The translations under genes and the position numbers were made by a program. Source: Massalongia carnosa (Eukaryota). Taken from it: 64,000 nucleotides of DNA. Below are positions 31,101 to 60,100 of this stretch, in pieces (positions within the stretch are counted from its first letter, which is position 1; every line of letters begins with the position of its first letter). The stretch covers positions 1,860,001 to 1,924,000 of the forward strand of contig OZ287081.1 in NCBI GenBank assembly GCA_965645245.1, written 5' to 3'. The notes beneath the pieces were generated by a model. The model ran no database searches. It was not told the DNA's origin and saw only the letters and a list, made by a program, of their open reading frames with translations.

Positions 31101-32847
31101 AGTTCCCGAAGAACCGGCTTTCAAAATACCGCGCGCTTTTCTAGCGCTGTTCGCCGACGATAATAACGAGGATGAAGATGGCTATCTCAAATTCGAATCT
31201 GCCCTATCGGCTGATGCTTCTTCATTTGAAAGAAACATACCCGAGCCTAAGTCTTACAAGGAAGCAGTAAATGATCCGGTGTGGGGGGAACTATGGAAAG
31301 AAGCAGTGAACACCGAGATCAAGGCGCTCATCGGTAATAAGACTTGGAAAGAAGTTGTTCCACCTCCCAAAACGAACATCGTCACCTGCTAATGGGTGTT
31401 TAAAGTAAAAACCAACCTCGATGGCTCATTGGAGAAGTTTAAAGCAAGATTAGTCGCCCGTGGGTTTACTCAAAAATACGGCATCGACTATGAGGACACT
31501 TTCGCCCCCACGGTAAGATCAGATACCCTACGTGCAGTGCTTGCCATAGTAGCGATGGAAAACCTGGAATGTCATCAAGTGGACGTGAATAACGCATTTA
31601 CCCAATCAACCTTGAAAGATGTCATTTACATGACCGCACCGGAAGGAGTAAACGTTGCCCCTGGTAGAGTTCTTCAGATTCTGCAAAGTCTATACGGTTT
31701 AAAGCAGTCCGCCAGAGAATGGAATAGCCGCTGTACAAATGAGCTGACCAAACTAGGCTTCATTCAATGCTCATCTGACCCATGCCTATTCACTCATCCT
31801 AAAAAGGGAATCATCATATTCATGCACGTAGATGACCTGGTGATCGCCTCCAAAATGATGAAAGAGATCGATTGGTTCAAGAAAGAGTTCAATGCTGCCG
31901 TTAGCATCAAGGATCTAGGAGAAGTGTCGAAGGTTCTGGGCATACGAGTAACCAGAGATCGGAAAAATCGAACTCTTCGAATGGACCAGACGCATTATCT
32001 CAAAGATGTGATGGAGAGAACACATATGAGCGCTGACAAACACAGGCCTACCGAAATTCCAATGAACGGCTATGATTCATTGCGACCGGCTGGAAAAGAT
32101 GATAAGCGCATAGATCAAAGAGAATATCAGCAAATTGTTGGAAGCCTGATGTACGCGGCAATTCATACGCGGCCAGATATAGCTTTTGCTCTTGGAAGGC
32201 TAAGCCAATATCTCAGTGATCCAGCTGCTCATCACGGTCATGCACTAAAGACGCTGCTTAGATACGTTCGGTCCACCATTGACATCGGTATACTGTATGG
32301 GGCTGGGGGGAATCATGGCCAAGGCCTCATTGGGTATTCCGACCCAGACTACGCAGCTGATAGGCTCGAAAGAAAATCGATCTTGGGATACGTGTACATG
32401 CTAGGGGGAGGGCCTATATCGTGGATGAGCAGAAAGCAAAAGTCGGTTGCTACGTCTACAACGGAGGCAGAATACATGGCCTTATCAACTTGTGCTAAGG
32501 AGGGTTTATGGCTCGTTCAGCTGATGAAAGACATAGGCTTCGAGAAATATTTCAGTCATAACGTCAATATTCGTGAGAACTTGACGCATCAAGCTGACTC
32601 CCCGATGCGGTTAAAAGGAGATAATCAAGCCGCTATCCAACTGGCAAAAGATGCTCACATTCATGATAGATCTAAGCATATCGACGTTGCCTATCATCAC
32701 ATTCGGGACCTGCACAAGCGAAATCGAATTCAGGTCGAGTACATACCCAGCGGAGAGATGATTGCCGACGGCCTAACCAAGCCTCTAAATAAGCCCATCT
32801 TCAATCGGTTCATTGGTCAATTGGGACTGCAAAAATGGAAAGAGTAA
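28180..32847 (+). pseudogene. Copia B gag-pol with one nonsense mutation (31390-31392)
   Basis: CLICGEVGHWTKEC; WVADSGASSH; integrase SIDICGP...VRSDNATE; TAA replaces K in IVTC(K)WVFK; RT motif reads HVDD. Confidence 0.93.
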
Positions 32848-35800
32848 GGTAGTATCGCACCGCAAGGGGACTGTTGAATGGCGGTTGCGATTATAGTTAT
32901 AATGGCTTGTTGGGCTCACTGCCTCATAACGTGGATAGCGGGTAGTCTAATCTTCTCTAGGAAGGTTTTAGGTTTAGCGTGCTTTGCCCTTCGGTGAAAA
33001 GTCTGCTCTTTTCCTTTTAGATAGCTATATAGTCAATGCGATTACCTGCAACCAGAGTCTCCTTTTAACTGATGATCATAATCTTTCGTTGACACTGCCG
33101 AAAGGCACCGTAACATGGGAAGCAAGAAACACGTCTAGCACGATAGATTTGGTTTTCATGTCAGAATACCTAGTCGAAAGACTCGAACACTGCATGTCCA
33201 GACCAGAATTGAATCAATCGTCCGATCACGTGCCGATATCAACCCGCATCCTACTCGGAAGCGAGCCGCAACCGAAAATCAAACGCAGAGCATGGAAACT
33301 TCTAAACCTGGAAAAATTAAGGGAGGCCGAACGACACGCCCCTATACCGGAGTCTCCCCGTACCACTGCCGAGATTGATGCGTACACGGAATCGATTCAA
33401 AAATTTCTACAAAATGTCATCAACGAAGCAGTTCCATGGGCAAAATCTAGCGAATATGCTAAGCCATTCTGGACAGAAGAATGCAGCATTGCCACCAAAG
33501 CCACACGGAAACTACGCCGCATATGGTCCAGCACGTTAGACCTAACGGACTGGTCTAACTATATGAAATCCAATGATAAAAAACAGAAAATCATTCAAAA
33601 GGCAAAGAGAACAAACTTTCGTCAAGAAATCAATATGGCCACCGAAACGCCTCAGGGACTATGGCGGCTAGCGAAATGGGCCAAAGACAAAAGTCATCAA
33701 TCTAGAGAAGTATCCAAAATGCCGATGCTAAAATTCAATGACCAAGTAGCAGACACGTTTGACCAAAAAGCCGAAATGCTGAAAGGTGTCTTCTTTCCCG
33801 CACCACCACCGGCCGACCTAAGCGACATAGAAGGATCCTTCTATCCTACATCGCCGCACTGCCCAATAATCATCACCAAGTCAGAAGTATCGACGGCCCT
33901 GAGTCGGCTCAAGTCCGATAAGGCACCGGGCCCAGACGGCATATCTAACAGAATACTCAAAGCATGCAGCGAAATACTTGTCGAACTACTAACACCTCTG
34001 TTTCAGGCGTGCGTCACACACTCGTACCACCCGCGGGCCTTCAAAATGGCAAACACAATAGCGCTGAAAAAAATAGGCAAAGGAGACTATACCACGCCGA
34101 AAGCCTACCGACCAATTGCACTGCTCAACACGCTCAGTAAAGTTATGGAATCCATCATTGGATCGAAAATAACCTATCTGGCGGAAAAACACCGGCTCCT
34201 ACCCGATACACAGATGGGAGCAAGGAAGGGCAGATCCACAGAGTCAGCACTGGAACTGCTAACTGAACAGGTTCACACGATTTGGGGACAGGGAAAAGAC
34301 AAAGTAGCCACACTGCTAAGCATGGACGTCGCCGGCGCGTTCGATACGGTATCACATCAACGACTAACGCATAACCTACGGAAAAGAAAAATTCCAAAAT
34401 GGATCACCGACTGGTTAAACAGCTTTCTGAGCGATCGAAGCACCACTTTAGCAATAAATCGAAAAGTCACTGGGCGGTTTGCGGTAAGAACGGGTATCCC
34501 GCAGGGCTCTCCCCTGTCATCCATTCTTTACCTATTTTACAATGCAGATCTGTTGGAAATATGTGATCGACCAGGCAAAAACACAAGTGCCATAGGATTC
34601 GTAGACGACGCAAACATTTTGGCATATGGAAAAAGCACCGAGGAAAACTGCAAAACTCTAGAGGCAATACACAGACAATGTGAGACGTGGGCTTCCCGGC
34701 ACGGATCCGTATTTGCTCCGACGAAGTACGAACTCATACACTTGTCTAGAAATCCCAAAAGATTCAACATGACTGCATCCATCAATATTGCTAGCACCGA
34801 AATTGAACCTAAAACGGACATCAGAGTATTGGGCCTACAAATCGACACCAAATTGAAATGGGGATCGCACGTTCGCAAAACGCAAGAGAAAATGGTCAAA
34901 CAATCCATGGCATTGACAAAAATTTCCACATCAACCTGGGGTGCCACCTTCGCCAAGGCAAGGCAGGTTTACAGTGCCGTGGTGCGTCCGGCCATGACAT
35001 ATGGGTCAACCGTATGGCACATGCCCAAAGAAGTCAAAAAGTCAAAAACGTCAACGAGCAAGCTCTCCGTCATGCAAAACAATTGCCTTCGCACCATAGC
35101 CGGTGCCTTTAAAGCCACTCCCATCTCAGTACTAGAAGCAGAGACATTCATAGCACCCATAGACACGCATCTCGACATGCTACAAGCACAGGCAAGGCAC
35201 CGGCTCCGAGCCGGAGGCCAATTGAAGATCATCTCCTCCGCATGCAACAAAATAGCTGACAAACTTCGAGGCAAGGCAGGTCGCAAACGACTTCAAAAGC
35301 CCACCCCGGGAGAGCTGAAACACATTTGGGCCAAAAGCCTACTGATCGACTCAAAAATAGTTCAACCACCAAAGGCACACCCACCATGGTTCGAAGTCTA
35401 CCCGGCGTGGCACCGCGAAGCTACCGTTGCGGCAACGGCCCGACACAAGCAGATGCAAACAATCAAAGCACGACAAATGAAGGTCTGGAACGACTCGTGG
35501 TGCGCATATCAAAATCGCGTCATCGAACCCTCCATAGCACAATCAGTCCCACTGAGCAAAAAACGGCTGAAAATACACACGCAGCTAAAAAAGGCAGAAA
35601 GCGCTCTAACAACTCAAATCCGCACTGGCAAGATCGGGTTAGCTGACTTCCTTTACAAGCGACGGGTGCCCTCCGTCACCTCACCGGCCTGCTCATGTGG
35701 CTGGCACAGACAAACTCCAGAACATGTAATCATGTTCTGCAGACTTATTGACAATAGAGAACAGATGTTTCGCGCCGCCGGCACGAGCGACTATCAGCAG

Positions 35801-36299
35801 CTGACCAAATCATCAAAAACTCTGAAGATACTAACTGCTTGGCTAATGAAAACAGGCTTATTGAATCAATTCTCACTAGCATCAACATTATTGTAAAATC
35901 AACAATAGTTGAACCTTTCTTTCTTCCTTCTCTTTTCACAAGGCATTACAGTTCCCACACGTCTTTTGCACTGCGTCTCCCGCCCGACGTCGACACGTAG
36001 TCACATCGGACGGGTATCAAGGGACATGGTTTTTACACCTGTGAAAGGTTTTCCATGTAACATAACTTAGATAGCTTTGCCCGCATGGGCCGGCCTACGG
36101 CCGGTGTCATATCGGAGTATGAATACATCATCATCATCATCATCAATAGGTTATTTATCAAAATATTTATCGGTCGTCTTCGATATTCAAACCCGCATAA
36201 GCTAGATCTACAATTATAGTGTTGAAAGAGTTAACTTATCAACGCATCGACGATCGCACAAGCTACAAATCGCATGAGTAGCTTATTGTGGATTTCTTG

Positions 36300-39674: not shown

Positions 39675-42600
39675 TGTTGGATGTTAGATGATGAGGCCAC
39701 CATCATCATGGGCATCCATCATGAGCCTCGGGAGGTGCCTTGCAAAGTGCCTAAACAAGCAGAGATGGGAGACAAGGTCTGACCGTCAGGGGGACAAGGT
39801 CTGACCTCCTAGATGTGACTGTTTTGTAACTGCTATATAAAGCAGACAAATAGCCCACATAGATAATTACCTTCAATGACAATCATGCTACTATACCTAC
39901 AAAGTGAATTTATATTTCATAGGTTATGAGCCCGGCTCACTTCTACTACGTTTGAATAAGCCCCTACATTGATTGTCAAACAAACTCACCTCCACCTCTT
40001 CCACCTACCTCATTTTATATTATATATATATTCCTTTTCATATCCCACTTCAAAAATCCAAGCAACCAAAGGGACCCTCTTTTTTTCCCCGCTCAGTAAC
40101 CCCTTCTCCTAAGCACGATGGCCAAAGGGGAGAGTCTATACACATTCCCAAAGCTAGTGGGGAGTGGAAACTATAAGAAATGGTCCAGAGAAATGGCCTT
40201 CGCCCTGCAGGAGGCGGAACTTTGGAACTACGTGACTGGTGCTCGGAAAATGCCTCGAGAAATTCCCCCTCCACCTCAAAAAGCTGATGAGACACCCCCG
40301 GAGGAAACAGAGGAACAGCTAGAAAAGCGGGACAAACGGGACCTTGAACGCCTAGAGTTCTCGGAGAAACAAAGGAGAGTAGTTGGTAAAATAGGCAAGA
40401 TGTGCACAGATGACGTGCAACAGGAATTCTTGTCGATGAGAGACCTAGCCAGTGGGGGCATCTGGGACCCGAAGGACCTTTGGGAACACCTGAAAACCCG
40501 ATACACCCTCAGAAATTGGAGTGCGAAATGGAGCACATTCAACCGGCTGGAGGAGATAAACTATGAAAAATGCAAGACCATCGAGGAGTATGGTAGCCTA
40601 GTCAGGGATATCAAGGCCGAAATCACCGACATGGCCCTGACCGTTGAGCACATTGTAGTGCTCAAACTCCTCAATGGACTCGGCAGTTCATTCAACACCT
40701 ACCTGACCATCCTGAACGAACAAGCTCGGCGGGAGGACAAATTCCCGGCGTTGGATGACTTACTAAAAAACCTGGAGGACGAGGAGGCTCGTATGCGCCA
40801 GGACCCTGTCGCCGTAGCTAACATGCTGAAGGCAAAGGGGAAGAAGAACCCCACCGAACAGGGTAAGACCAAATGCAAATGCTGTGGTTATAATCACTCC
40901 GGAAAATGCAGGCATAGCAACGCTACATGTAGGAAGTGTAGTAAGATTGGCCATCTGGAACGCGTTTGTGAAAGCAAAGAAGGTAATGAAACCTCAAACC
41001 CCCAAATAGTTTGTACAATAAGGGAATGTTCCGGGAAAAGAACCCAGGAAACACCGCTTATTTGTATGGCAAATTTGTACCGAGGTCCCAAGAATGCCCA
41101 CGATCTATTGATCGACTCCGGTGCCACCGCGCACATTATATGCAATAAAGATCTCTTTCAAGAAGGGACCTTTCGGAGCGAAAATAGCTGTTTAGAAACA
41201 GGTTCCGGAGAGGTGTTATCGACAGAGGGGAAAGGCTCTCTACTCGTATCACTGGACAATGGAAATGGAGGTGTAACGGACCTCATTTTGACCAACGTCC
41301 TTTTCGCCCCCGACCTAAAATTCAACCTCATCAGCACAATACAACTCGGCAAAAAGGGCATATCAACGTACCTGATGGCGGATGACAAGCCCGCTCAACT
41401 GGTGCATAAAGGAAAGGTGGTTGGACTGGCCAAAACAATAAATAATCAGTATGTTTTGCAGACAACCACTATTAGCCCTACCGAAGCACGGGCCCTCACC
41501 ACCACAAACGGTACAAAGGCCCCTATCCAAACATGGCACGAACGACTCGGCCATCTCAGCTACCCAAACCTCCTAAAATTAAATCATTTAGCCAATGGAG
41601 TCACCATCGAAGGACCCATACCAGAAGAAGTATGCGGCTCATGCATGATGGGAAGACAATAGCGGAAAATAAATCGCACTCCACGAACCCGAGCAACAGA
41701 ATTTCTCGGAATAGTGCATAGCGACTTAGGGGGACCATTTCCACTGACAAGGTTCGGTGAACGTTTTTATGCTACGATGAAAGACGACTTCTCCGGGGTA
41801 GTGTGGATCTACCTGCTGAAAACAAAGGGTCAAACCTTCGAATGTTTTAAGCAGTTCAAGACATGGATAGAAAATCAATCGGGAAAGAAAATAAAGAGAC
41901 TCCGAGCTGATGGAGGAGGGGAGTACACCAGTGGTGACTTCCAGGAATTCCTAAAGAGTGAAGGCATCCAATGGGAGGCCCGGGCACCAAATGTGCCAGA
42001 ACAGAATGGGAAGGCCGAAAGGCAAAATTATACCCTCATGGTCCCCACTCGGTCCATGATGAAGGCTAAAAAGCTCCCAAAGTCCCTTTGGGGGGAGGTC
42101 CTGAAGACGGCCGGGTACATCAAGAATAGAAGTCCCGGGGTTGACGAGGTCACTCCATATGAACGCATGAATAATGCGAAACCCTTCCTCGGCCACATGA
42201 GAACGGTCGGGGCTAGGACGTGGGTACATATCCCAAAAGAGAAGCGCAAGAAGCTGGACGATAGGTCCTGGCAGGGGATATTTGTTGGGTATGAAGGAAA
42301 CAATCAGTATCGAATTTACGATCCTCTCATTGGAAAAGTCCATGTTTGTCGCGATATCACCGTCGACGAAAGCAATATATATGATTCCAAGGACAAAAAG
42401 GCCTGGGACCTAGCCGACATTCCATGGGAGGGAGACGATGATGCTTTGTTTGATGACCCAGATGATTTTGTTGATGAAAACAAAAGTCATAATCAGCCAT
42501 CTTCGTTGTCTCCGAAAACTCCGAGCTCTGAAATATCGAGAAGTTCGGAAGTTCAAAATGAAACGGCCCCACCAACACCACGGATAGTGCTACATCTAAT

Positions 42601-43321
42601 GGGAGTAAATGCTTCGGGGGGAGGCCGAGAAGAGGAGAATGGGGGGGAGAGTGACTCCGATGAAGTGGAGGACATTCCTCGCCAGCCCATCGAACCTCGA
42701 AGATCTGGACGAATAAGGGTCCCCAGTCAAAGAACACTGGAGAACATTCGTCCCAGCATCAACACCGTATTCAGTTCAAACCAGGTCCCGAAATCCCATG
42801 AGCACATGGTGCGGGTGCTAGCAACCCTGGCAGGAGGCGAGGACAATGAGGGCCTCGATGATCCTTTGACACTGAAAGAGGCTATGTCCTCACCACACTG
42901 GGATCAATGGAGAAAGGCCATGGAGACCGAGTATCAATCGCTAGTGGAGAATGAAACTTGGACACTAGAAAGGGCACCGACTGATCGAAAGGTGATCACC
43001 GGTCGCTGGGTGTTCAAAATAAAGAAAGACGGAGATGGGAAAGTACTGAAGTACAAAGCGAGATGGGTAGTTCATGGCTATAAACAAAAGGAAGGCCTGG
43101 ACTACCTCGACACCTTTGCCACAGTGGTAAAACCAGTCTCTTATAAGGCATTGATGGGAATCAGTGTAAAGAAGGGACTGTCCATTCATCACATGGATGT
43201 GGTGACTGCTTTCCTGTATGGCTTCCTAGATGAAAGCCATATATGTCATACAACCCACCTTGTTCGAAAAAGGGGAGAACAAGGTCTGCTTACTACGAAA
43301 GGCCCTATATGGCCTAAAACA
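39675..43321 (+). mobile_element. Ty1/Copia retrotransposon C, 3'-truncated within RT
   Basis: LTR 39675-39921; PBS at 39922; gag-pol from 40118 (CRKCSKIGHLERVC, LLIDSGATAH, HSDLGGP, RADGGGEY); TAG at 41660; frameshift near 43240; cut by the Copia D LTR. Confidence 0.92.
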
Positions 43322-43758
43322 TATCAAAAGGTAGTATAGTAGATAGAGGATAGAACGCTTGCTGTTGTTCTATATAGTGGGAATAGCTAGATTTATAGAC
43401 AATGTACGGTATGCTAGTATTAGACTAGCGATACGTCTAGCCATTAGCGTGCGCCATACTCGTGCGGTAGAAGGTGAGTGCGGCTGAAATGAAGTAACCT
43501 GATTTGTACATTCTAACACTCCCACTCAGGCACTGAAATAGCACTCCCACATGATAAAGAGAAATTCAATAACTCCCACATACTCCAGTATAATATCATG
43601 CTTCCCAGTGGATCACCTGCAGGTGAGTCAGTGTACTCCGCAGGCTAATGCTGCTGGCGATGTACGAAAACACCCCCACAGGCTCAGCTGTGGGTGATAC
43701 TTTTTTTTTTTTTTTTTTTGGGTTAAGGTCGAATTTTTTACGACAAAGGGCTTCTGGT

Positions 43759-46700
43759 TTATTCTAAGCCTAAAGCTTTTCGAAAGACAACAAATTTGTC
43801 CTTTGGTAGGGCCTTGGTTAGGCCGTCAGCTACCTGTTCTTCGGTAGGAACATAGCGAAATTCCACTGATTTGTCTTCGATCTTCTCTCTTTGGTAGTGC
43901 CATTGGATGTCAATATGCTTGCTCCGCGCGTGTGCCTGGGGATTTTTGGCCAAAGCTATTGCTCCTTGATTGTCGCAGTGAATGATGATAGCATTTAGGG
44001 CGAAAGATGTAGGCAAGCAGGCAAGGGCTACAGAGGTGCTCTGGGTTTGGAGAGAGTGTATCCCAGGGACTTGAGGTGCTGAAAGTTGGTCGAGAAGACT
44101 AGACAGCCAGACGGCTTCCTTGGTGGCTTGAGTCTGACCCATGTACTCGGCTTCGCATGAAGATAGGGCTACGGTCGGTTGTCGTTTGGAAGACCAGCTA
44201 ATAGCGCCACTACCCACATTAAACACGAAGCCTGAGGTAGACCTTCGGGTATGATGATCTCCGGCCCAATCCGCGTCAGTGTAACCGTTCAAGGGTTGTA
44301 AGTGACCTTTGTATGTTAACTGCAACGGTAGAGTGCCCTTGATGTATCGAAAGATGCGTTTGACTGCCTTCCAGTGCGTATCGGTCGGGTTCGAGGCATA
44401 GCGGCTGACCACCGATACGGCGTAGGCTAAGTCAGGCCTAGTGCCTAGCATAGCATACATGAGAGAGCCCACCGCTGATTGGTAGCGGAGGCGAGAGTCA
44501 TCTGTGGCCTGATGGCCCTCTGGTGCAGCCTCCAGTCGCCCATCCATCGGGGTAGCCACGGGGTTAGTGTCCCACATGCCATGGTCGCGTAGTACTTTTT
44601 CCAGATAGGCCTGCTGACCAAGGCGAAGAATCCTATTAGCCCGATCCCGAGTTATCGTCATGCCCAGGTAGTAATTGATAGGGCCTAAATCAACCATCGA
44701 GAACTCGTCACTCAGCAGTTTCTTGACACGTTGTATCTCGGAAGAAGAAGAGCCAGTGATGATTAAATCATCGACGTAAATGGCTACGATAACCCCTTCT
44801 TTAACGAAAACGCTAAGGTCGGCGTTGACTGGAACGAATTCATGAGACTTGAAAAAAGTAGTGATCGTTTCATACCAGATTCTAGACGACTGTTTCAGGC
44901 CATAAAGAGCTTTCTTCAACTTGCAAACTCTCGTTGACCCGTCATCCAGACCGGTTGGTTGCTCCACGTAGATTTCCTCGTCCACCCTTCCGTACAAGAA
45001 GGCTGTTTTTACGTCCATTTGGTGGATTTCCCAATCATTGGCTGCAGCGATAGCGAAGATGGCTTTATAGCTCATTGGCTTCACTACTGAAGCAAAAGTC
45101 TCATTGTAGTCAATGCCTTCACGTTGCTCAAAGCCTCTGACTACCCATCGAGCCTTGTAACGAAGAATCTCGCCAGCCGGGCCTCGTTTGATTTTATAAA
45201 CCCATTTGCCTCGCAGGGCTTTGCGGTCCGGGGGCAGGGAGGTGAGGATCCAGGTATCATTTTCGTTGATAGAGTCAATTTCTTCCTGCATTGCCCTTCG
45301 CCAATCCTTTTCCTCCCGACTATCTACGGCCTGTTTATAGGTTTTAGGCTCGTATGGCTCCGGGTCATTGGCTCGAGCAAGAAGAGCCAAAAGAGCAAGC
45401 GGGTCAGGCGAGGGGGCGCGAAGTTTTGGATGCTTAGAGAGAATATCTGCCTGGGACCAAGGCTCAATGGGCAGTTGGTTTGCCAATGCCTCTTTTCCAG
45501 CGTTTGATGGGAGAGGTCCAGTGGGAATTGATTCTATGGATTCATGAGCGTCGACTAAGTCCGTATGAGGGGAGTCCGTATGATGGGTAATTTTTTGCTT
45601 TCTTGTGGGCGGTCCTGACTGTCCAACATGTAGGGCTCTTTTAGTTTGAGAGAATGATAAGGAAGGAGGAGTTGGGGGGTTGTTATCTATCCACTGAACA
45701 TTGGAATAACGCATGACCGCGCCCCGTGGATTTATCATTCGATAGATGTGATCGCCTTCGTATCCTACTAAAGTACATTTGGTGGCTCGTTCCTGAAATT
45801 TCTTCCATCCGGTGGAGGGCTTGCGATTTTGCGCATAGCCAGTCTGTCCTATTATCCTTAGATGTCCTAGTTCTGGTGGGCTGCCGGTGTGAGACTCGTA
45901 GGGGGTGATGGAGCGTCCCGCAGTTGGTTGTCGATTTCTTAGGTAGTTGGCAGTGAGAACCATCTCAGCCCAATATTTGATGTCTAGTTTAGCGCCTTCT
46001 CGCATGGTGCTGGCTAACTTGTGAAGCGTTTGACCTAGGCGCTCGGCTGTCCCGTTCATGGGTGGATTTCCCGGTACGGTAGGTTCCCACTGAATGCCAT
46101 GCTCGTTTCTGAAATTCTCGAAGTCCTTGGAGTCATACTCACCCCCACAGTCCGATCGCAAGCGCTTAATTCGTTTGTCCCCATATTCATTTTGCTTCTT
46201 GTAGTTTTTAAAAGCTTGAAGGACTCCGCTTTTGACGCGCAGTAAGGTGACGTGGGACCGTTTATCGAAATCGCAAAGAAAGGTTACCATATATTTGGCG
46301 CCGTTCAAAGCTTCTGGGAAAGGTCCTTGGACATCACTGTGAATTAAGTCCAGCGGGTGCTTGCCTGGTTGGATGGGGGCCCGGTGTGGTTCTACTTGGG
46401 ACTGAGCGATGGCGCACGGAGGACAGGCGTCTTGGGGCGGGGGCTTGGTGAGGTCCATTCCTTTTGACATGCCAGCGAGCTTGAGAATGTTTTGATTTCC
46501 AAGATGGCCTAAACGAGCGTGCCACATTTTTATCGCCTCGCTATTAATTGCAGCAAGAGCGAGAGCGGCTTCAGAGACGTTCCACATATTCAGGATATAC
46601 AGATTGTTGTCCTGGCGGCGAGCGATAATACCATAGTTCCCGATTTCAATTCCCTCTGGTACAATCTTCAGGGGACATCCATCTCGTTGTAATTGTCCTT

Positions 46701-47883
46701 GGGAGATGAGATTTAGGCCTCCGTCCGGAACGTATAACACATCGAAAAGAGGGAACTCCCGAAGACCCTCGTTACCGGCACACCGCAACATGACGTTACC
46801 TATTCCTTTGGGAATTAATACTCCTCCAATACCTTGAATTGGAGGGCAATCGGATGTCTTGAATGAGGTGAAGATGGAGCGATCGTGGGTAATATGTTGG
46901 CTAGTTCCAGAGTCACAGATCCAGAGCTTAGATATTTTGGTTATATCTGCGGTGGCCATGTAGGCGCAGAAGGCTCCTTTGGTTGAGTCATTGTTTCCGG
47001 TTGGCTTTTGGCTTTGACCTTGACTTTTGGAATTCCTACGACGCTTATTGGACTTACGCTGTGAGTCTTGGTTAACGAGGTGTGGATATTTTTCACGACA
47101 CTCGCTCTCTACGTGATAGTCTTTTCGGCAGTGGTTGCAGAACTTGATGGTCTTGGTGATGATTCGAGAATGGGCTGTTCCGGGTTGAGCTCCTGCTTGG
47201 GTTTGAGCGTTTGAAACAGCTGCCATTGCGATTACGGCCTTATCGCTGGACTTGCTTGGGTTGGTCACCGTGTTTTGGAAATGCTGCATAGCCTGACTTA
47301 ACGTGTGCTTGGGTTCACCCATTTCATTGAAAGGATCATGATCCTGAGCGTATCGTTCGAAATAGCTGTTGTATTCGAAGCCTAAATTGGTATGGAAGCG
47401 ATAGATAAGCCAGTTTTCGTCCAGGCTTAGCTTGCTTGAGAAGGTGCGAAGCTTATTCACCGTGGCGCGAAATTGGGTAACGTAGTCTGCAGGGCTGCTG
47501 CAATCCGATAGGATAAGGTTGTCTAATTTTCTAAAGGTGTCATTGAGGAATCCCGAACCGCGAGGCTTATAGTTTGACTCAAGCAGGTCCCAGGCGACGG
47601 AAGCAGTAGTATGGTCTTCTATATCGGTGTAGGCATTTCCTTCACAAGCTAATCGTAGAGCAGTGCAGGCCTTATCTTGGCCCTTTTTCCATTTGTTGAA
47701 GCCATCATTGGGAGCGTTTGGGCGTGGTGCAGCTTCGGTGTTATCACAATAGATCCAAAGATCTATCATTTTGAGGCAATCTCGCATGGCTCGCTTCCAT
47801 GCTGGATAACCCTCGTGGTCCACTAGCTTAGGGATCCTATCAATAGCGCTATAGGACCCCGATCCAGAGATTTTTTCACTCAT
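43759..47883 (-). CDS. Intact Copia gag-pol polyprotein (1374 aa)
   Basis: CNHCRKDYHVESEC; WICDSGTSQH; WHARLGH; HSDVQGP...LRSDCGGEY; IYVDDL; YTDADWAG...VADGLTK. Confidence 0.96.
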   Translation of the reverse strand: MSEKISGSGSYSAIDRIPKLVDHEGYPAWKRAMRDCLKMIDLWIYCDNTEAAPRPNAPNDGFNKWKKGQDKACTALRLACEGNAYTDIEDHTTASVAWDLLESNYKPRGSGFLNDTFRKLDNLILSDCSSPADYVTQFRATVNKLRTFSSKLSLDENWLIYRFHTNLGFEYNSYFERYAQDHDPFNEMGEPKHTLSQAMQHFQNTVTNPSKSSDKAVIAMAAVSNAQTQAGAQPGTAHSRIITKTIKFCNHCRKDYHVESECREKYPHLVNQDSQRKSNKRRRNSKSQGQSQKPTGNNDSTKGAFCAYMATADITKISKLWICDSGTSQHITHDRSIFTSFKTSDCPPIQGIGGVLIPKGIGNVMLRCAGNEGLREFPLFDVLYVPDGGLNLISQGQLQRDGCPLKIVPEGIEIGNYGIIARRQDNNLYILNMWNVSEAALALAAINSEAIKMWHARLGHLGNQNILKLAGMSKGMDLTKPPPQDACPPCAIAQSQVEPHRAPIQPGKHPLDLIHSDVQGPFPEALNGAKYMVTFLCDFDKRSHVTLLRVKSGVLQAFKNYKKQNEYGDKRIKRLRSDCGGEYDSKDFENFRNEHGIQWEPTVPGNPPMNGTAERLGQTLHKLASTMREGAKLDIKYWAEMVLTANYLRNRQPTAGRSITPYESHTGSPPELGHLRIIGQTGYAQNRKPSTGWKKFQERATKCTLVGYEGDHIYRMINPRGAVMRYSNVQWIDNNPPTPPSLSFSQTKRALHVGQSGPPTRKQKITHHTDSPHTDLVDAHESIESIPTGPLPSNAGKEALANQLPIEPWSQADILSKHPKLRAPSPDPLALLALLARANDPEPYEPKTYKQAVDSREEKDWRRAMQEEIDSINENDTWILTSLPPDRKALRGKWVYKIKRGPAGEILRYKARWVVRGFEQREGIDYNETFASVVKPMSYKAIFAIAAANDWEIHQMDVKTAFLYGRVDEEIYVEQPTGLDDGSTRVCKLKKALYGLKQSSRIWYETITTFFKSHEFVPVNADLSVFVKEGVIVAIYVDDLIITGSSSSEIQRVKKLLSDEFSMVDLGPINYYLGMTITRDRANRILRLGQQAYLEKVLRDHGMWDTNPVATPMDGRLEAAPEGHQATDDSRLRYQSAVGSLMYAMLGTRPDLAYAVSVVSRYASNPTDTHWKAVKRIFRYIKGTLPLQLTYKGHLQPLNGYTDADWAGDHHTRRSTSGFVFNVGSGAISWSSKRQPTVALSSCEAEYMGQTQATKEAVWLSSLLDQLSAPQVPGIHSLQTQSTSVALACLPTSFALNAIIIHCDNQGAIALAKNPQAHARSKHIDIQWHYQREKIEDKSVEFRYVPTEEQVADGLTKALPKDKFVVFRKALGLE

Positions 47884-50398: not shown

Positions 50399-51877
50399 TA
50401 CGGAGACATTGAAAAAATTATATGGTAGGCCTCGAAAGTACTCTACTGCTGATGAAGCTGCAGCGGCCAAGAGACGGCAGAGTCGAGGTTATTACCACAA
50501 TCCATCGTGCCCGGTTGGTCTTGCAGGTCCCGTCGACTTTGTTGCCTACGAGCATCTACCTACATCCGATATCCCTAGCGAAACCCTGCCTGCCATTGGT
50601 CTGCGAACCAGCCTCCACATACCAATCCCTCCGGATCGCGATATAGCGGAAGACTGTGAGAAAGAGCTTGAACCCGAAGCATACTAAGGATAATCCCCCT
50701 CAAACTGCAACTCCAAATTCCCTACACGAGGAACCCGAAATCGTTCAACAAGTTGAGAAAATACGCACAGAGGAGGTGACAAATACTGAAGACGCAGACT
50801 ATGATGTGGAGGTCACGGCACGCTTGGAGGAGTCGGCAGCCTATCTCGAGGCAGCAGCAGTACTCCAGGCACTACGAATTGGGCAACAAGAGAGGCAGGA
50901 GAGCAGCAAGGCCGGGTCACCGTATTCTGACTACGCCGCCTAGTAGTTTAGTGATTTGAATCAGCAGCACCTAGACACAACAGCACACCAATTTATAGTC
51001 CACCGAATACAGATATACAACAGGGCAGTTCAGCGCATACTGCAGATACATGACGCAGTCACAGCAGGACTTCCAAGGCTCAGTCAAGTAGCACCAGTAG
51101 TAGACGTAGGACTTCGTTCCCAACGCAGATAAACACGCTATTATCATGGACTAGTTCGTGTCAATCTCGTTATATTGCTACTAAGTATGTTTGGGCTATT
51201 GCTCACAGCCCCCGGCCTCGAGAGGGGGACTCGATAAGGGCCTTGCTGTCTACTAATGTAAGACCCTCTCGCAGGCCTTGGGCTGTGAACAGACTCCCTC
51301 TATCTAAGCGACAGAAGAACTGGAGTGGGTGGGTGGGAAAGAAAACGTTGCAAACAGTGCTATCAAAATGCTATGCTTTTTGATTGTCTTGAGATGTGAG
51401 ATGATGAGGGATACCGTCTGGGACCTCCTCTTTATATATCTTCTTCCTATTCTCCTTGTCCTACTCTACCATCCCAGTATGCCCCATCAACGCGGCCCAT
51501 AGCAAGGCATACACAAATCCGAAACCTAACTGTCGTCCGAAGGATCGATGCGGTGCTAAGATCTCTATGCCGTGCTGAGACATCCTTATGGTGCTGAGAC
51601 ATCTATGCCGTCCGAGAGATCCATGCGGTGCCGAAATCAAAGCGGGAGCTGTCTCGATTAACGACGCACTAGCTCTCAGCATAGCCGAACTAGCTAGTTC
51701 GTGTCAATCTCGTTATATTGCTACTAAGTATGTTTGGGCTATTGCTCACAGCCCCCGGCCTCGAGAGGGGGACTCGATAAGGGCCTTGCTGTCTACTAAT
51801 GTAAGACCCTCTCGCAGGCCTTGGGCTGTGAACAGACTCCCAATCCCCAACATGGAACGACCCGCTTGCGGTGTTGT

Positions 51878-52933
51878 TCAGGACCTAGTGACTGGATTGT
51901 GAGGTTCCGTGGGTAATGTTTGAAGGCGTTTTGAGGCGTTAAGAAGGTAAGTGGGGTGGGTTTGTATGTAAAGCTTGTATGCGTCTGACTTCCATCTTCC
52001 TAGCATCTGAATCTCGTCTTCGGTGAGTCCTGCCCGTCGCGCTGTTGTTGCCGCACCTCTTCTGAACGAGTGGCCAGAGAAATTTCCTATATAGCCCAAG
52101 TTCCTTAAGGTGGATTTCATCGCTGTTGTAATGTAGTCTCGAGTGAAGGACTGACCGTTTTTAAAGAGTGGTGCGGCCGGAGAACTTGGGAATCGCCTAT
52201 ATAAATTTGTAAGAGAAGCTAGTGCACAAGCAACATCGTTGGTAGCCGCAATTGTCAGTGTTATGCCTCGGCGAAAGGGATCGGTTTTGGAGACTGGTAG
52301 AGAGAGCTGTAGGTGATCTGCTTCGAACCTAATAGATTTTCTGGTGAGGTGCCATTGATCAAAGCTTGGGTCTAGTACATCTTGCGTTGTGTAAGTAAAT
52401 TCTCCGGCTCGTAAGAAGCCTGCAAACGCTAAGCAGTACGCCGCATGTAAATTTGCGCCTTTCTCTTTCGTTTGATCAAGACGACTTAGCAATTTGATTA
52501 AGATCTCTCTAGTAATTGGTAACCTTTCACGTTTCTCGGCTTCACCGTTCTTTCGCTTTATGCCAGTAAGGATGCGATCTAACACCGGGTGATGAAATAC
52601 GTCGAGATTACCGAGGCCCATATCTATCTGGCATGATCTTATGCCCGTCAAGTAGCTCTTAATAGTTTTTGGTTGCAGGCGTCGTTCACCCAACGCTGCG
52701 ATCCACGAAGACAGCGTCCGGATGTTGGCTGGAAATGGTGGCGCGTTGAGGTTTACCCTACAGTAAAGAACGTATCCCTTTCTTGCCGTTGTGTATAAAG
52801 ATCTTGTCTTAGTGGCCAGGCCCCACCAGAGGTATCGTGCTGCGATTTCGTCTAGAGGTACCTCACTGTACCAAGATGGGGGTGGATCGCGTCCTATATT
52901 GCTGAGGGTAGAGCCTGAAACTGAGGGATTTTG
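51878..52933 (-). CDS. Tyrosine recombinase (open frame of 351 codons, no N-terminal AUG)
   Basis: Catalytic set FLRAGEF (R), SKTDPF (K), HSFRRG (HxxR), LGRW...AYKLY; the frame extends upstream of the track ORF (RYLWWGLATKTRSLY...PFPA) and overlaps RT by 40 nt. Confidence 0.93.
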   Translation of the reverse strand, partial: QNPSVSGSTLSNIGRDPPPSWYSEVPLDEIAARYLWWGLATKTRSLYTTARKGYVLYCRVNLNAPPFPANIRTLSSWIAALGERRLQPKTIKSYLTGIRSCQIDMGLGNLDVFHHPVLDRILTGIKRKNGEAEKRERLPITREILIKLLSRLDQTKEKGANLHAAYCLAFAGFLRAGEFTYTTQDVLDPSFDQWHLTRKSIRFEADHLQLSLPVSKTDPFRRGITLTIAATNDVACALASLTNLYRRFPSSPAAPLFKNGQSFTRDYITTAMKSTLRNLGYIGNFSGHSFRRGAATTARRAGLTEDEIQMLGRWKSDAYKLYIQTHPTYLLNASKRLQTLPTEPHNPVTRS

Positions 52934-54510
52934 TCAGCCAGTTTCTTCAAAAGTCCTCTAGACAAGAGATCAGCAATATAATTTTCTTTGGATGATATCC
53001 ATCGCGCTTCTATCTGGATATCATGTAATGCAGCTAGCATTGTAATTGCCCGCAGGGCATGCATTGCTTGGCCTCGTATAGAGGTTTTATTCACTCCTTT
53101 CGTGACAGCGTAGCTATCACAATAGAGGATTAAATGACTACCCTTGCATATAGGTAGCCACTTTTTCATAGCTTGAAGAATTGCTGTCATTTCTTTGACG
53201 TTGATATGCTTTGCCCTAAGGTGCGTAGTAAAGCGTGTGCTAAAAGCCTGCCGGGCTGCTTGTATATTATGCAAATTTTGATCCTCGCTGAGGATAAAGC
53301 CGCCCATACCATATGAGCCGGACGCATCTGTCCATATTCTCATAGTATGTCTAGTACGGTTGAGCAGATGTATGCCATTCCATTTAGGTAGGAAATGATG
53401 CCACCATAGAAGATCAGCCCTCATGTCCTTGTTAAGATGGATTAGTTTAGAGGTTACGCTTGCCGTAGCATTGAAAAGACGGCGTAGAAAGGCTCTTCCT
53501 GGTTTTACCACTCTGGCTGCAAAGCATAAGAATCCTAGAAGAGAGTCGAGTTCCTTCCTGGGTATGGCTTTTTTATTCAAAGCTGCCGATACTAGGGTCT
53601 TTGCTTTTAGTAACTTTTCGGAAGGCAAGCGTGCTTCCATGAGCGCGGTATCGATTTCAATGCCGAGGAAATCGCAAGTCGTTCCAGTTCTGTTCTTTTC
53701 GAGCTTGATTTTCATGCCAAGATCTTTACAAATGTTGTGGAAAACTTGATCAAACTTTTCAGCATCTGGTCCGGTGCTGACTATTATTAAAAAATCATCC
53801 AAGTAATGAATAGCGTCTTTCCAACCACAGTTGTACAATATCCAGTTGATACCCTTCGCGAACAGATCAAAAAGGAACGGCGACGTTCTCAGCCCAAAGG
53901 GTAAGTATTTATCCATCCAAAAGGAATCCTGCCACTTGAAACCTAGTAACCACCAATCGCTTTTTGCTACTGGTATGTGGCGAAAAGCGTCCGCAAAGTC
54001 TCTTTTAATAAGAATACACCCTGGCCCGCGTTGCTCAATCAACCTAATGGCTTCGTCGAAGCTGGTATATTCCAGGGAGCCCCAGTCTTCCGGTATGTGG
54101 TCGTTGACTGAGCTACTCTCCGGATACGATAGATGATGGATTCGCCGCCAACCACCGTTAGCCTTTGGTACAAGGCCTAATGGGGAACATATAAAGCAAG
54201 AAGGAATGTTGTTGACTTTCTCCAACCGATTACTAGCTATTTGTTCTTCGAGGTCATTGGTAAGAACTTCCGGTGCCTCATTTGCAGAGGCAAGATTATC
54301 GCTAATAATGAGTTGATGTGGTCCTGTATAACCAACTTTGGCACCGTAGGTGATGATATCGATAATTGTTTGTGTGTAAGTGCGATCCGGGTGATTGGCC
54401 AAATGTTTCTCCCAGCCTTCTTTCTTCAATGGGCCCGGTGGGATCTTTGTTAGATTGTCCGTCAAGGTGTATGGAAAGGACTCCGCGATGGATAAGAATG
54501 GGGCGGTTAG
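52894..54510 (-). CDS. Ngaro reverse transcriptase + RNase H (in frame with gag, no N-terminal ATG)
   Basis: SPLGLVPK, WRRIHHLS, DFADAFRHI, LPFGLRTSP, HYLDDF; WTDASGS, HINVKEM, YCDS, NYIADLLSR; the frame is open directly from the gag stop. Confidence 0.93.
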   Translation of the reverse strand, partial: LTAPFLSIAESFPYTLTDNLTKIPPGPLKKEGWEKHLANHPDRTYTQTIIDIITYGAKVGYTGPHQLIISDNLASANEAPEVLTNDLEEQIASNRLEKVNNIPSCFICSPLGLVPKANGGWRRIHHLSYPESSSVNDHIPEDWGSLEYTSFDEAIRLIEQRGPGCILIKRDFADAFRHIPVAKSDWWLLGFKWQDSFWMDKYLPFGLRTSPFLFDLFAKGINWILYNCGWKDAIHYLDDFLIIVSTGPDAEKFDQVFHNICKDLGMKIKLEKNRTGTTCDFLGIEIDTALMEARLPSEKLLKAKTLVSAALNKKAIPRKELDSLLGFLCFAARVVKPGRAFLRRLFNATASVTSKLIHLNKDMRADLLWWHHFLPKWNGIHLLNRTRHTMRIWTDASGSYGMGGFILSEDQNLHNIQAARQAFSTRFTTHLRAKHINVKEMTAILQAMKKWLPICKGSHLILYCDSYAVTKGVNKTSIRGQAMHALRAITMLAALHDIQIEARWISSKENYIADLLSRGLLKKLADKIPQFQALPSAI

Positions 54511-55665
54511 TCATTGCCTTGATGGGAGAGGCATCGAATTTGGGTTAGAGGGTTGATTTTTTCCATTTGTACAGTCCATCGCCCGATGTTGCTTTCCACA
54601 TTTCTCACACACATGTTGGAATCTACAATATACGGGACAGTCTTTGCCATAGTTGTATTTCTTACAGATAATCTTTTCGCCTGAGGTTTTGAAAGCCGTA
54701 GAATTATCGTCCGGTTTTGCAAAGTAAGCGGACGGTTTCCGCACAAGATGCCTTTCCAAGGAATGGTCCATTTCTTTCCATCCATCCGGGTTGTCAATCC
54801 CGCGAAAGGCTCGAGATTTGTGGAAATTCAAATGAAAGATGCGAACCGAGTCCCAGGTGTAGAAGGCGTATAATGATAGAAGATGGTCCTGATAAGCCAT
54901 GAAGGCTCTCATCAGGTTTATCTGGAGACCGGGGTGTGCAAAGTGTAGTAGTATCATCCAATATACCCCGAGACATCGTATCAAATGAACTATCCCTTTG
55001 ATATCTTTTAAGGAGCCATCTTCTTCTCTCGTGGCGATTTCCAGACCTTCTCCGAGTTTGACGTATCTAGAGTTGGTTTGAACTCCGTCGATGTCGGTAC
55101 ATAGCTTGGTAATGTTGATTGGGTCAAACGTATTCTCGGAGATTTGCTTTATCCATATGGGCTTGATAGTGGGATATTCGTTCATAAGAGAAACAAAACG
55201 AGGATCCATACCTTCTGTATACAATGAGTTTGGTCGATGCGGTGGAAATGATGTCGGAAATAATAGGGAAGGCTGTTGAGCTGAGGCTACTGGCCCAGGG
55301 ACCACGTCTCGGGCACGTGCTTGTTGGGTTTCGATATCCCGCCTAAGACTTACTCTTTCTCTTTCCTCGGCTTCCCTGCGGGACATTTCGCGTTGTGCTC
55401 TAAGTTCAATAATGTCATCAGGGGTGCGAGAACGGGTTTCCGGTATAACAGGCCCTTGTGAGGAGGAATTAAACGCTGAAGATGGAAGAGGAGAAGGTTG
55501 AGGATGGCTTTGAAGGGTTGCCGTGCTGTCTTGTGAGTCGGGTACTTCGACGTCTGGGTTGGAGTTGGCTAGATTTGCCCTAGCTCTAGTTCTAGTACGG
55601 GCTAGAGTGCTGCCTTGTGTGCGGGAGGTAGGCTTGGTGATTCTGTTGGAGATGCGGGTGGCCAT
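54511..55665 (-). CDS. Ngaro gag-like protein with a C-terminal Cys/His finger cluster
   Basis: First ATG at 55665 (MATRISNR); CKKYNYGKDCPVYCRFQHVCEKCGKQHRAMDC. Confidence 0.88.
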   Translation of the reverse strand: MATRISNRITKPTSRTQGSTLARTRTRARANLANSNPDVEVPDSQDSTATLQSHPQPSPLPSSAFNSSSQGPVIPETRSRTPDDIIELRAQREMSRREAEERERVSLRRDIETQQARARDVVPGPVASAQQPSLLFPTSFPPHRPNSLYTEGMDPRFVSLMNEYPTIKPIWIKQISENTFDPINITKLCTDIDGVQTNSRYVKLGEGLEIATREEDGSLKDIKGIVHLIRCLGVYWMILLHFAHPGLQINLMRAFMAYQDHLLSLYAFYTWDSVRIFHLNFHKSRAFRGIDNPDGWKEMDHSLERHLVRKPSAYFAKPDDNSTAFKTSGEKIICKKYNYGKDCPVYCRFQHVCEKCGKQHRAMDCTNGKNQPSNPNSMPLPSRQ

Positions 55666-56111
55666 TTTTGGAGGAGAGGGATTTGAATAGAGTAAATTTA
55701 AGTGTAGTGGTTGTATAAATTTGAATTGGGTGAAAAGAAAACGTTGCAAACAGTGCTATCAAAATGCTATGCTTTTTGATTGTCTTGAGATGTGAGATGA
55801 TGAGGGATACCGTCTGGGACCTCCTCTTTATATATCTTCTTCCTATTCTCCTTGTCCTACTCTACCATCCCAGTATGCCCCATCAACGCGGCCCATAGCA
55901 AGGCATACACAAATCCGAAACCTAACTGTCGTCCGAAGGATCGATGCGGTGCTAAGATCTCTATGCCGTGCTGAGACATCCTTATGGTGCTGAGACATCT
56001 ATGCCGTCCGAGAGATCCATGCGGTGCCGAAATCAAAGCGGGAGCTGTCTCGATTAACGACGCACTAGCTCTCAGCATAGCCGAACTAGTGAAGCCTTTG
56101 ACAGGTGTCGT

Positions 56112-57120: not shown

Positions 57121-60100
57121 TTAGCGTATGCAAAATGATTTGCAATTTCGCTTATGAAAACACATACAACCAACATGACCCCACCATTCAAACTCCAAAA
57201 TCTTAATTTTCCTAGATATTCCCTAATCGTGCCAAAACACTAAACCCTAACCGAGTCAGGGTCTAGTGCCCGACGGTCAACTGACGCATACAGTCTACTG
57301 ACGCACTTTTCCTATTTTCACTACCATTTACACCACTTCGTTCATCTACCACCACATGCCTAACTCATATTCTAATAAGGAGGATCAAATTGTCGATGCT
57401 ATAAACGCGTGGAACACGGTTGAATTTCGAAGTATACGCGCAGTAGCCATTTGATTTCGATGTCGACATTCGTACGCTTCAAAGACGACTTGCTGGAGGG
57501 GGTTCGCGCATCGGTCGATCTGGCCCTAACAAGGCCTTATCTGATGAACAAGAATTGGCCCTTTGTGAATATATTGTGATGCTCGATCAAGCCGAACAAT
57601 CAGCCAGGTTTTCAATGGTTCTGGGGGCTGCTAATTATCTACTAAGAGAAGCTCATTTAGACGCCTCCATCCCCCCCCCTCACGTCAGCGAGGCCTGGAC
57701 CAAACGTTTCCTCAATCGTCATTCTCAATTTTTCAAGCGAAAACACAAACCTCTGGCCGCTGAGCGAAAACACGCGCACAATGCAAAGGACAGGCTCGAG
57801 TATTTTGAAGCATATCGAACTGCGCGAAAGACGCGGGGAATAGCGGAAGAGGACGTTTGGAACATGGATGAAATGGGCTTTCGAATTGGCTGTGACAGGG
57901 CTCATTGGGTTATATCAACTCACTCCAGAAAGCCCTTGCTATTGACAGATCCAGATAATAGAGAATATGTCACCTCGTGTGAGTGTATTAGTGCTGGGGG
58001 GCGAAACATTCCCCCCATAGTGATTATAGCGGGGGTTTTGATTCTCGAAAAGTGGACACAACAAAACGATCTGAATGACGATGTTTTGTTGACTACTAGT
58101 CCTACCGGCTATTCCAATGATGATTTGGCTATTGATTGGTTGAAACATTTCGATAAACACAGTCGAAAGGGTCAGGTAGGGGCCTGGCGTATGTTGATCA
58201 TGGACGGGTATGGATCTCATATGACATATGAGTTTTTTACATATGCCAAACGAAATCACATTGAATTGTTTCGTTTGCCTCCTCATTCAACACATCTCAC
58301 TCAGCCATTGGATGTAGGATGTTTTCAGCCGTTCAAAAATTATCATTCCGAAGGCATTGACGAGATGGTGCGACTCGGAGGGGCAGATTTCGACAAACTG
58401 GATTTTTGTCCATTTTTCAGCGCATGCGAAATCAAACATTCACCTCATCTACCATATTATCGTCATTCAGAAACACGGGTCTGGTGCCTTATAACCCCAA
58501 TGTGGTAATTCGAAAGCTGGAGGAAATTCAAACTCGGAGACTTGCTACCCCCCCACCTTTGTCAGCCCCTCTGCTCGCCAGAACGCCCCGCACGACTAAA
58601 GAGGTGGTTGAATATGGCTTACACCTTCGAATGAGTTTGAATAAATACAACGTGCTGGACAATGAATGGGATTGTCATGTGAATCGATTTGTGAAGGGCT
58701 CTACTTCCAATGCGCATGCACGTCAGATTATTGAGCGGGACCTTCGAGCCAGTCAACAACAGTCCATCGCGAAGGCGGCCCGTAGAAAATTGGATGGTAA
58801 GGTCGCCCAGAAGGGAGGGGTCATAACTGTAGGAGATGTACGGGCCAAAAACCTCGAAACGTTGTCAGAACGAGGTGGAAAAGACCAGACTGGCCTATGA
58901 ACGTGCCACACTAGCTGCTGAAAAGAAGCAGATTGCCCTGGACAAAAGGTATAAAAGAATCGCTAGATCAATGCCCAGACAAGCGAAGCTATTTTACCAG
59001 CGTCATAATCAATCAGTTTCTGCATAACCGTTGTTGTCCTCGATTTGTAGCAGAAATGGTAGTGAAAATGGGAAAAGTGCGTCAGTAGACTGTATGCGTC
59101 AGTAGACCGTCGGGCACTAGACCCTGACTCGGTTGGGGTTTAGTGTTTTGGCACGATTACACCAAAATCCTAACATATTTTTATAATTTGGTAGACATCT
59201 ATAGAAATTATTATGCCTCCAAATAGACGGAGTAAAAAGGGACCAGTTAACCAAGTTTTGCTGCCGGCACCGACTCGGGGGGGTCGTCGCCGCCAAGTTC
59301 CTGCTCGCCTACGAAGCTCGCCCACCCCTCTTGGTCCTAACCCTCAAACCCCGCTCCAGGGTGCACGCCGTCCCCATGAGAGCCCTCCTAATCCTCCTAA
59401 CCCTCCTTCTTCTCCTCCTGTCGGCGCCCGTCTTCCAGCCCCTCCACTGTTTCCTCCCTTAGATGCTCGACCTCGACCCCCCCCCGGTTCCACGCCGCCC
59501 GAGTGCGCGTGACGACCATACACCGGTATTCACCATGAAAACGCCCAAGATTCCCGGCAATACTCGCGAGGGGAAGGCGGAGCGTATGTTATGGCGTGCA
59601 CATTTGGAGAGAAGCAAGGAGGCCGCCGCGCGAGCAAGAGCGAGACGAGATAGGGAGGATGAAGAATGGGAAGCGGAGGTCAATCAATTCGGGGAACCGG
59701 AAGCCCGACGACGACGACTGGAAGAAATAGAGGTTAATAAAGAATTAGACAAATTGACTACATCGAACTTTGAGGAAGATGAGGCTGAAGATCTAGTATC
59801 AGATCCTATGTTGACCGTTCATGCTAGACTTCGTGTCAATGGTAGAGTTATATGGACCTCATCGCTAGGTTCTAAAAAACGAAGCGTTTTCAGCATATGG
59901 GATTTCGAACAGACATTGGAGACTGAGATTGAGAAAAGGAACGGGCATACTAAAGGATGGACGACGACCTCCATCGTCGTCATTATTAAGGCCATTCATA
60001 GTCGGGCCAGGAATGTCCATCAAACCATTGATAATTATACTGAGACTGAATGGGAAAAGGTTCTAATTGTCATTGATGATGAATCTCGTAAATGGAAGCC

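Follow-up and report, generated by a model that had tools for sequence, protein, structure and literature searches.

The window analysed here, a 64,000-nucleotide (nt) stretch of Massalongia carnosa contig OZ287081.1 (positions 1,860,001 to 1,924,000), carries on its minus strand a tyrosine recombinase (YR) retrotransposon of the Ngaro type, in which a gag-like open reading frame (ORF) and a reverse transcriptase (RT)/RNase H ORF lie in one frame and are separated by a single UGA codon followed by CUA. Programmed readthrough of this stop, yielding a Gag-RT fusion, is the best explanation of the sequence comparisons presented below, and we put its probability at roughly 0.75. Under such a scheme, most ribosomes would halt at the UGA (54513-54511) and release a 384-amino acid (aa) Gag ending in a zinc-knuckle module, while a minor fraction would insert an amino acid at the weak UGA-CUA stop and continue in frame into a Gag-RT/RNase H fusion of 923 residues. 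Readthrough would in this way set a high ratio of Gag to polymerase, as UAG readthrough does in the gammaretroviruses. A sequence-only reading of the window had already proposed that the element makes its Gag-Pol by this route; the proposal is now supported by a conserved stop and by an enriched stop-CUN context, from which we infer ribosomal readthrough and its frequency. Coordinates are window positions, and all features of the element are on the minus strand.

The sequence, together with the frame translation of 55800-52894, reads ...AGG CAA TGA CTA ACC GCC CCA... at the junction, exactly as had been noticed earlier. The gag-like ORF (54514..55665) has 384 codons counted from the ATG at 55665 (MATRISN...) and was recognised by translation and by homology to the upstream ORFs of relatives; the Pfam scan gave no family match for it. 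Its C-terminus holds a zinc-finger module (54571..54666) of the form Cx8Cx3Cx3H followed by CxxCx4Hx4C. Past the in-frame TGA (54511..54513), which is the proposed leaky stop, and the CTA codon immediately 3' of it (54508..54510), the gag frame continues as a 538-codon ORF (52897..54510) that ends at TAG 52896-52894. This ORF matches RVT_1 (E-value = 2.9e-14, residues 153-286) and RT_RNaseH (E-value = 6.8e-8, residues 388-476) in Pfam, and its first peptide conserved in the alignment of relatives, SIAESFPY (54469..54492), begins 7 codons past the stop. The first in-frame ATG past the stop is found at 53914..53916, which is RT-ORF codon 199 and lies beyond motif A, presumably the stretch 'LIKRDFADAF' upstream of that ATG; in the fused frame the methionine at residue 378 is followed next by the one at residue 584. 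The start given by the ORF-listing program is a TTG (54465), and the earlier remark that RT has no N-terminal AUG holds. One in-frame stop thus stands between two coding regions, the downstream one without a usable start. The layout of a -1 frameshift is not found at the gag-RT junction, where both ORFs share a frame with zero overlap. Judged from the relatives, the in-frame gag-stop-RT layout is beyond chance.

Other copies of the element, as well as diverged relatives, keep the frame and have a stop at this position, not a sense codon. The gag protein belongs to a cluster of 18 members (at least 90% identity), and among the 15 listed nine are exactly 384 aa long, one of these 384-aa variants occurring on 20 contigs; the remaining listed members are shortened (157-349 aa). 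The 384-aa variants indicate that the stop was kept, because a sense codon would have given a product of about 923 aa. Four public runs were also compared over 53700-55300, and two of them (X1 and X5, as opposed to X7 and X8) span the junction. Both a 765 bp unitig of X1 (54442-55206) and a contig of X5 (54322-54592), the latter from a differently labelled organism, have the TGA and show 0 differences, an agreement that lends weak support to a shared stop, as contigs may mask rare variants. Further away, the gag relatives P0002 (41% identity, E-value = 9e-76) and P0003 (38% identity, E-value = 6e-65) end at the column aligned with the window's stop, their tails being ...NPNYIPTGRRE-stop and ...NPNLQPVSRRE-stop, respectively, next to ...NPNSMPLPSRQ-stop in the window. 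A search among 507-1616-aa proteins for a near-identical fused Gag-RT, with residues 265-505 of the readthrough product as query and X at the stop, returned 5 matches, none reaching the gag side. Two distant proteins out of 285, P0174 (1202 aa) and P0188 (1252 aa), align across gag and RT at ~30% identity; as gene models of unstated calling method, they speak neither for a sense codon nor for a stop that was skipped.

A nonsense mutation in a dead copy or a dead family, with RT activity supplied in trans, would not be surprising in a window that is a nest of decayed transposable elements, and the shortened gag cluster members would suit it. We nevertheless regard it as highly improbable. The stop is common to at least nine distinct full-length gag variants, it is present in the X5 run of the second organism, the gag relatives at 38-41% identity end at the identical column, and the one-stop layout recurs in 26 families of junctions (see below); in addition, the repeats of the element are 99.45-100% identical and both its RT and YR ORFs are intact. 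A sense codon in other copies had been named as the sign of a private mutation, and the comparison turned up the stop in its place. With a shared stop, a conserved layout and an intact young element, the dead-copy or private nonsense reading was rejected.

The survey of junctions comprised 85 loci, namely the window and 84 relatives obtained through an RT alignment (80 from metagenomes and four from bacterial-labelled bins), with RT identities of 32-54%. Each locus was followed from RT, in the RT frame, back to the nearest upstream stop, and ORFs of 150 codons or more lying upstream were scored. An upstream ORF in the RT frame with exactly one stop before RT (class A) was found at 29 of the 85 loci, and six more have this layout on contigs that end less than 150 codons upstream (class A?). 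At eight loci the longest upstream ORF shares the RT frame but two or more stops intervene (class B), at 24 it is in a different frame (class C), ten loci are without an upstream ORF of 150 codons (class D), and at eight the RT ORF runs past the 5' end of the contig (class E). Among the 61 informative loci (A, B and C) the longest upstream ORF is thus in the RT frame in 37, where one third would be expected (binomial P = 1.1e-5). Class-A upstream ORFs are gag homologues, with BLASTP E-values against the window's gag from 2e-42 to 1.9 (E < 0.03 in 26 of 28), and most of them end 5-25 residues past a zinc-finger module resembling that of the window. Six aligned junctions present, in one frame, the same succession of zinc knuckle, short tail, stop, linker of 2-22 residues and conserved RT N-terminus (S/A-E-G/S-F-P-Y ... 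GPL ... W ... HPD). The one-stop layout is found on both deep branches of a quick tree (52 rows), from which 33 of the 85 rows, with the RT frame broken within 350 residues, were left out.

Several class-C loci are nearly identical to class-A sisters (L077/L083, L082/L017, and L020 and L030 near L021), which suggests decay and not a separate design in these sequences. Other class-C loci may use a genuinely different route, the strategy at the gag-RT junction having then switched within the group. The gag of L024 and L025 has 569 codons and shares 55 nt with an RT ORF that lies in the -1 frame, and in L032 a 564-codon gag overlaps the RT start by 278 nt in a different frame. The sequence-only reading had noted that the ORFs of DIRS and Ngaro elements are usually described as overlapping in different frames; such arrangements do occur here, as the class-C count attests, and the in-frame layout with one stop is seen at 29 loci. 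Concerning the origin of the relatives, L081-L084 and the protein P0142 are Ngaro-type RT/YR sequences on short contigs that were placed in metagenome-assembled genomes under the labels Acidobacteria, Bacteroidetes and Chloroflexi, and these are most likely misbinned fungal contigs. A scan of viral contigs for relatives gave 74 pattern matches, of which 0 were confirmed.

The nucleotides that follow the stop provide the second line of evidence. The 29 class-A junctions fall into 26 clusters, called families here (at least 85% identity over at least 150 nt), and the flanking bases cannot be aligned between most of them. The stop is TGA in 17 families, TAA in five and TAG in four; the +4 base is C in 19, and the codon after the stop is CUN in 14 (CTA in seven, CTC in four, CTT in two and CTG in one), while two families have TAG-GGA. 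Compared with 24045 background codons of gag and RT from these loci, of which 7.7% are CUN, 1.3% CUA and 28% C-first, the enrichment is strong (binomial P = 1e-9, 4e-8 and 3e-6, respectively), with the limit that the families are related by descent and these values overstate their independence. All 14 post-stop leucine codons are CUN, versus 77% of leucine codons in general (P = 0.027), a pattern that suggests selection at the nucleotide level, not for the residue. As a control, the stops closing the RT ORF were taken at 19 of the loci; they are followed by C in 2/19 and by CT in 1/19, and are TGA in 6/19. The expectation that relatives would share TGA-CTA was borne out in part, for TGA in 17 families and for a CUN codon in 14; CTA itself is limited to the seven families above, and the stop is TAA or TAG in the other nine. 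The upstream CAA, also singled out earlier, is not a general feature, being present in only two families; AAA or AAG directly precedes the stop in 11 of 26, and the second codon past the stop is CCN in 11 of 26 (counted by eye). The stop context of the window, UGA-CUA, is one at which termination is known to be poor, and it is enriched across the 26 families. That UGA-CUA is a known leaky context, as the sequence-only reading had stated, agrees with the available part of Stiebler et al. (2014, PMC4207609), where CU(A) after UGA suffices for efficient readthrough both in Ustilago maydis and in HeLa cells, UAG or UAA in place of UGA lowers it, and most weight falls on the two bases directly downstream.

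RNA folding of the 120 nt 3' of the window's stop gave a minimum free energy of -21.1 kcal/mol that is not significant against shuffled sequences (z = +0.86). The missing fold fits a short-context signal. The Rfam scan returned one sub-threshold chance match, and none at the junction. In the TAG-GGA subfamily (L005, L006, L007 and L052) a stem is predicted directly past the stop (L005:2968-3087, L006:2932-3051, L007:2956-3075 and L052:2932-3051), with 1 compensatory pair in the four close sequences. This subfamily may use a structure-assisted readthrough signal, four sequences being too few to judge.

What lies between the stop and the RT domain also bears on how RT is reached. The S/A-E-G/S-F-P-Y motif is conserved in relatives at 45-54% RT identity, and conservation of SIAESFPY so close to the stop implies that this stretch is translated. 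No methionine precedes the RT homology in nine of the 26 families, the window included, and six of the Met-less families have linkers of 47-175 codons past the stop that are free of stop codons. In the close pair L016/L028, one member has TGA and the other TAA at the junction, so that a stop was retained, and dN/dS is 0.20 for gag and 0.12 for RT, a sign of purifying selection on both sides of the stop. The 105-codon linker of this pair has a synonymous divergence (pS) of 0.076, versus 0.35-0.37 in the flanking gag and RT coding sequence; nucleotide-level constraint or recombination are possible reasons for the low value.

Translation of RT alone, with no fusion, would be the other way of obtaining a polymerase from such a junction, whether through an internal promoter, a subgenomic or spliced RNA, IRES-like (internal ribosome entry site) initiation, a non-AUG start such as TTG 54465, or reinitiation. 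In its favour, some methionine is present before the RT homology in 17 of the 26 families. It does not, however, predict the same-frame bias (37/61), nor an RT frame that is open up to the gag stop at 29 loci, nor the CUN enrichment. In the window itself, 198 codons without an AUG follow the stop and the conserved peptide starts far ahead of the first methionine; the nine families without a methionine, six of them with long linkers, pose the same difficulty. We consider RT translated alone to be possible but unlikely.

Several points weigh against programmed readthrough, some of them at the same time favouring RT translated alone. Post-stop linkers evolve almost neutrally (dN/dS 0.6-0.96), as expected for disordered spacers rich in Ser, Thr and Pro, and translation is therefore not proven by them at the protein level. 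More than 20 relatives, which form a clade, start with 'MPSSL.F.SEGFPY', the methionine of which aligns to the first post-stop codon of the window, and in L008 this methionine lies 12 codons past an in-frame TAA, so reinitiation is possible for the clade. TAA is the tightest of the stops and is nonetheless used by five families. The longest upstream ORF is in another frame in the class-C loci, though several of them are close sisters of in-frame loci, and the descent shared by the families tempers the statistics of the stop context. Without a significant fold, the efficiency would depend on the short context alone. Finally, the available part of PMC2194720 reports that the junction of Tca2, a retrotransposon with an in-frame gag-UGA-pol arrangement, gave no readthrough in a Saccharomyces cerevisiae reporter and had a cryptic promoter instead.

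Fusion of gag to RT could also be brought about by splicing, if an intron spanning the stop were removed. Short introns are typical of fungi, and P0004, a gene model of Peltigera leucophlebia, passes from gag-like sequence into the RT N-terminal sequence. In P0004, however, unrelated sequence takes the place of the zinc-knuckle region, which would fit a decayed copy. A search of the window for GTRNGY..YAG intervals of 40-300 nt that span the TGA and keep the frame gave 0 candidates. Peptide conservation moreover approaches the stop within a few codons on both sides, with the NPN..P..R tail before it and SIAESFPY 7 codons past it, which leaves no room for an intron, and we judge splicing across the junction to be improbable. 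A branch-point reading of 'TGACTAAC' at the junction was rejected, CTRAC not being consistent before the stop in relatives and no YAG being nearby.

The element as a whole extends from 56089 to 51151 and is, by its sequence, a young, apparently intact and recently active Ngaro-type retrotransposon, in keeping with the earlier call of a YR retrotransposon. It has the split direct repeats A1 - internal region - B1 A2 B2: the 5' terminal repeat A1 (55727..56089, 364 bp) is 99.45% identical to A2 (51330..51693) in a self-comparison, and B1 (51694..51841, 148 bp) is 100% identical to B2 (51151..51298), which forms the 3' end of the element. RT and RNase H are together in one pol-like ORF (54510-52897) that terminates shortly past the RNase H domain, and a tyrosine recombinase ORF is present instead of a DDE integrase. 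The Pfam scan of the element's ORFs gave no rve, DDE integrase or protease match, and no DNA methyltransferase domain either, the 538-aa ORF matching RT and RNase H families only. Absence of a methyltransferase domain separates Ngaro from DIRS1-like elements. The nearest named relatives of the gag protein belong to two lichen-forming fungi, Peltigera leucophlebia and Pseudocyphellaria aurata. A solo fragment of 555 bp at 1857-2411 is 99.3% identical to the B2-A2 block (51147-51701) and has no adjoining coding region; it may be a remnant of recombination between repeats or a truncated copy. The Ngaro insertion is surrounded by copia, LINE-like and Tc5/pogo elements, which occupy 9607-13050, 16596-20450, 28180-31392, 32984-35896, 40118-43339, 43759-47883 and 57555-58508. 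They include several copia-type polyproteins (one of them an intact 1374-aa ORF), a Tc5/pogo-type DDE transposase and two LINE-like ORFs with endonuclease and RT.

The tyrosine recombinase ORF (51881..52933, stop to stop) is in the -1 frame of RT and overlaps the end of RT by 40 nt. Its assignment comes from a weak Pfam match to Phage_integrase (E-value = 2.2e-4, 21.5 bits, under the cut-off of 27.1) and from homologues, and the translation shows what we take to be the R...HxxR...Y residues of the family. Counting the window, 64 loci have a YR homologue located downstream of RT. The first methionine of the window's YR ORF is codon 105. Of the 64 loci with both matches, 58 have YR in the -1 frame relative to RT, the two ORFs overlapping by 22-1084 nt, and mostly no methionine precedes the YR homology. 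The -1 frame and the lack of an early methionine suggest that expression of YR needs a second recoding or a splicing step. Canonical slippery heptamers were confined to the loci whose overlap is 22 nt (L005, L006, L007 and L011, with C CCA AAT and A AAT TTA) and, as other heptamers, to L024; none was found at the RT-YR overlap of the window. In nine of 15 printed loci, all with overlaps of at most 85 nt, the -1-frame stop lies within a conserved CTAAC/CTGAC, and in six of these nine (those outside the 22-nt group) a CAG follows 8-9 nt past it. The combination resembles an intron branch point and acceptor and could represent an alternative to frameshifting. Two successive recodings on one RNA, that is, stop-CUN readthrough from Gag into RT/RNase H and then a -1-frame event (frameshift or splice) from RT into YR, are for the present a tentative and rather doubtful extension of the scheme; if it were true, Gag, Gag-RT and Gag-RT-YR would be made in graded amounts, and no recoding scheme would have been described before it for tyrosine recombinase retroelements.

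Expression of the polymerase in tyrosine recombinase retrotransposons is essentially unstudied. If the leaky stop is indeed a conserved feature, these elements would obtain plentiful Gag and little Pol by the same means as some retroviruses. They would do so with the minimal UGA-CU(A) signal, known so far mainly from peroxisomal isoforms of host enzymes and from a few viruses. The roughly 26 diverged junctions, with TGA, TAA or TAG and followed by CUN, GGA or other codons, would then form a natural panel of readthrough signals and a comparative set for the determinants of readthrough in fungi. Apart from this, gene callers split or truncate such elements at the stop, and annotation pipelines should join both ORFs.

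Readthrough between gag and pol is, as such, classical. In murine leukaemia virus, Gag-Pol is made by readthrough of a UAG followed by a 3' pseudoknot, and the minority fusion sets the ratio of structural proteins to enzymes. The junction of the window is like that of the gammaretroviruses in having gag and pol in the same frame with a single stop between them. It differs from murine leukaemia virus in its UGA-CUA, in the absence of a significant 3' structure, and in an element that has a tyrosine recombinase and neither protease nor DDE integrase. Specifically, the UAG with a structure about 8 nt downstream was not found in the window, where the stop is UGA, the fold has z = +0.86 and no Rfam match reaches threshold at the junction. 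The TAG GGA junction resembles the UAG GGA of murine leukaemia virus, and the subfamily that carries it (L005, L006, L007 and L052) is closer to the viral case than the window is.

Described Ngaro and DIRS elements share with the window the gag, RT/RNase H and YR ORFs, the split direct repeats and the lack of a methyltransferase (Muszewska et al., 2013, PMC3783388, in its available part); the same source notes that the YR ORF may be frameshifted from RT and overlap it. The available parts of PMC3783388, PMC3266345, PMC6681497 and PMC9210276 do not describe the gag-RT junction as an in-frame leaky stop, and no account of readthrough in Ngaro or DIRS elements came up in full-text searches, the founding accounts (Goodwin and Poulter, 2004; Poulter and Goodwin, 2005; Poulter and Butler, 2015) being outside this scope and possibly mentioning an in-frame stop. 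Among retrotransposons, Tca2 (pCal), a Ty1/copia element of Candida albicans, has a comparable arrangement. In the available part of PMC2194720 it is, however, a long terminal repeat element with a putative pseudoknot and an unexplained mechanism of bypass, whereas the Ngaro junctions carry the validated UGA-CU context. The identical UGA-CUA signal is that of the peroxisomal isoforms, and according to the available part of PMC4207609 it suffices in the basidiomycete Ustilago maydis with no structure downstream. There, readthrough extends a host enzyme by a short targeting tail, while in the window it would add a polymerase of 538 residues to a capsid-like protein.

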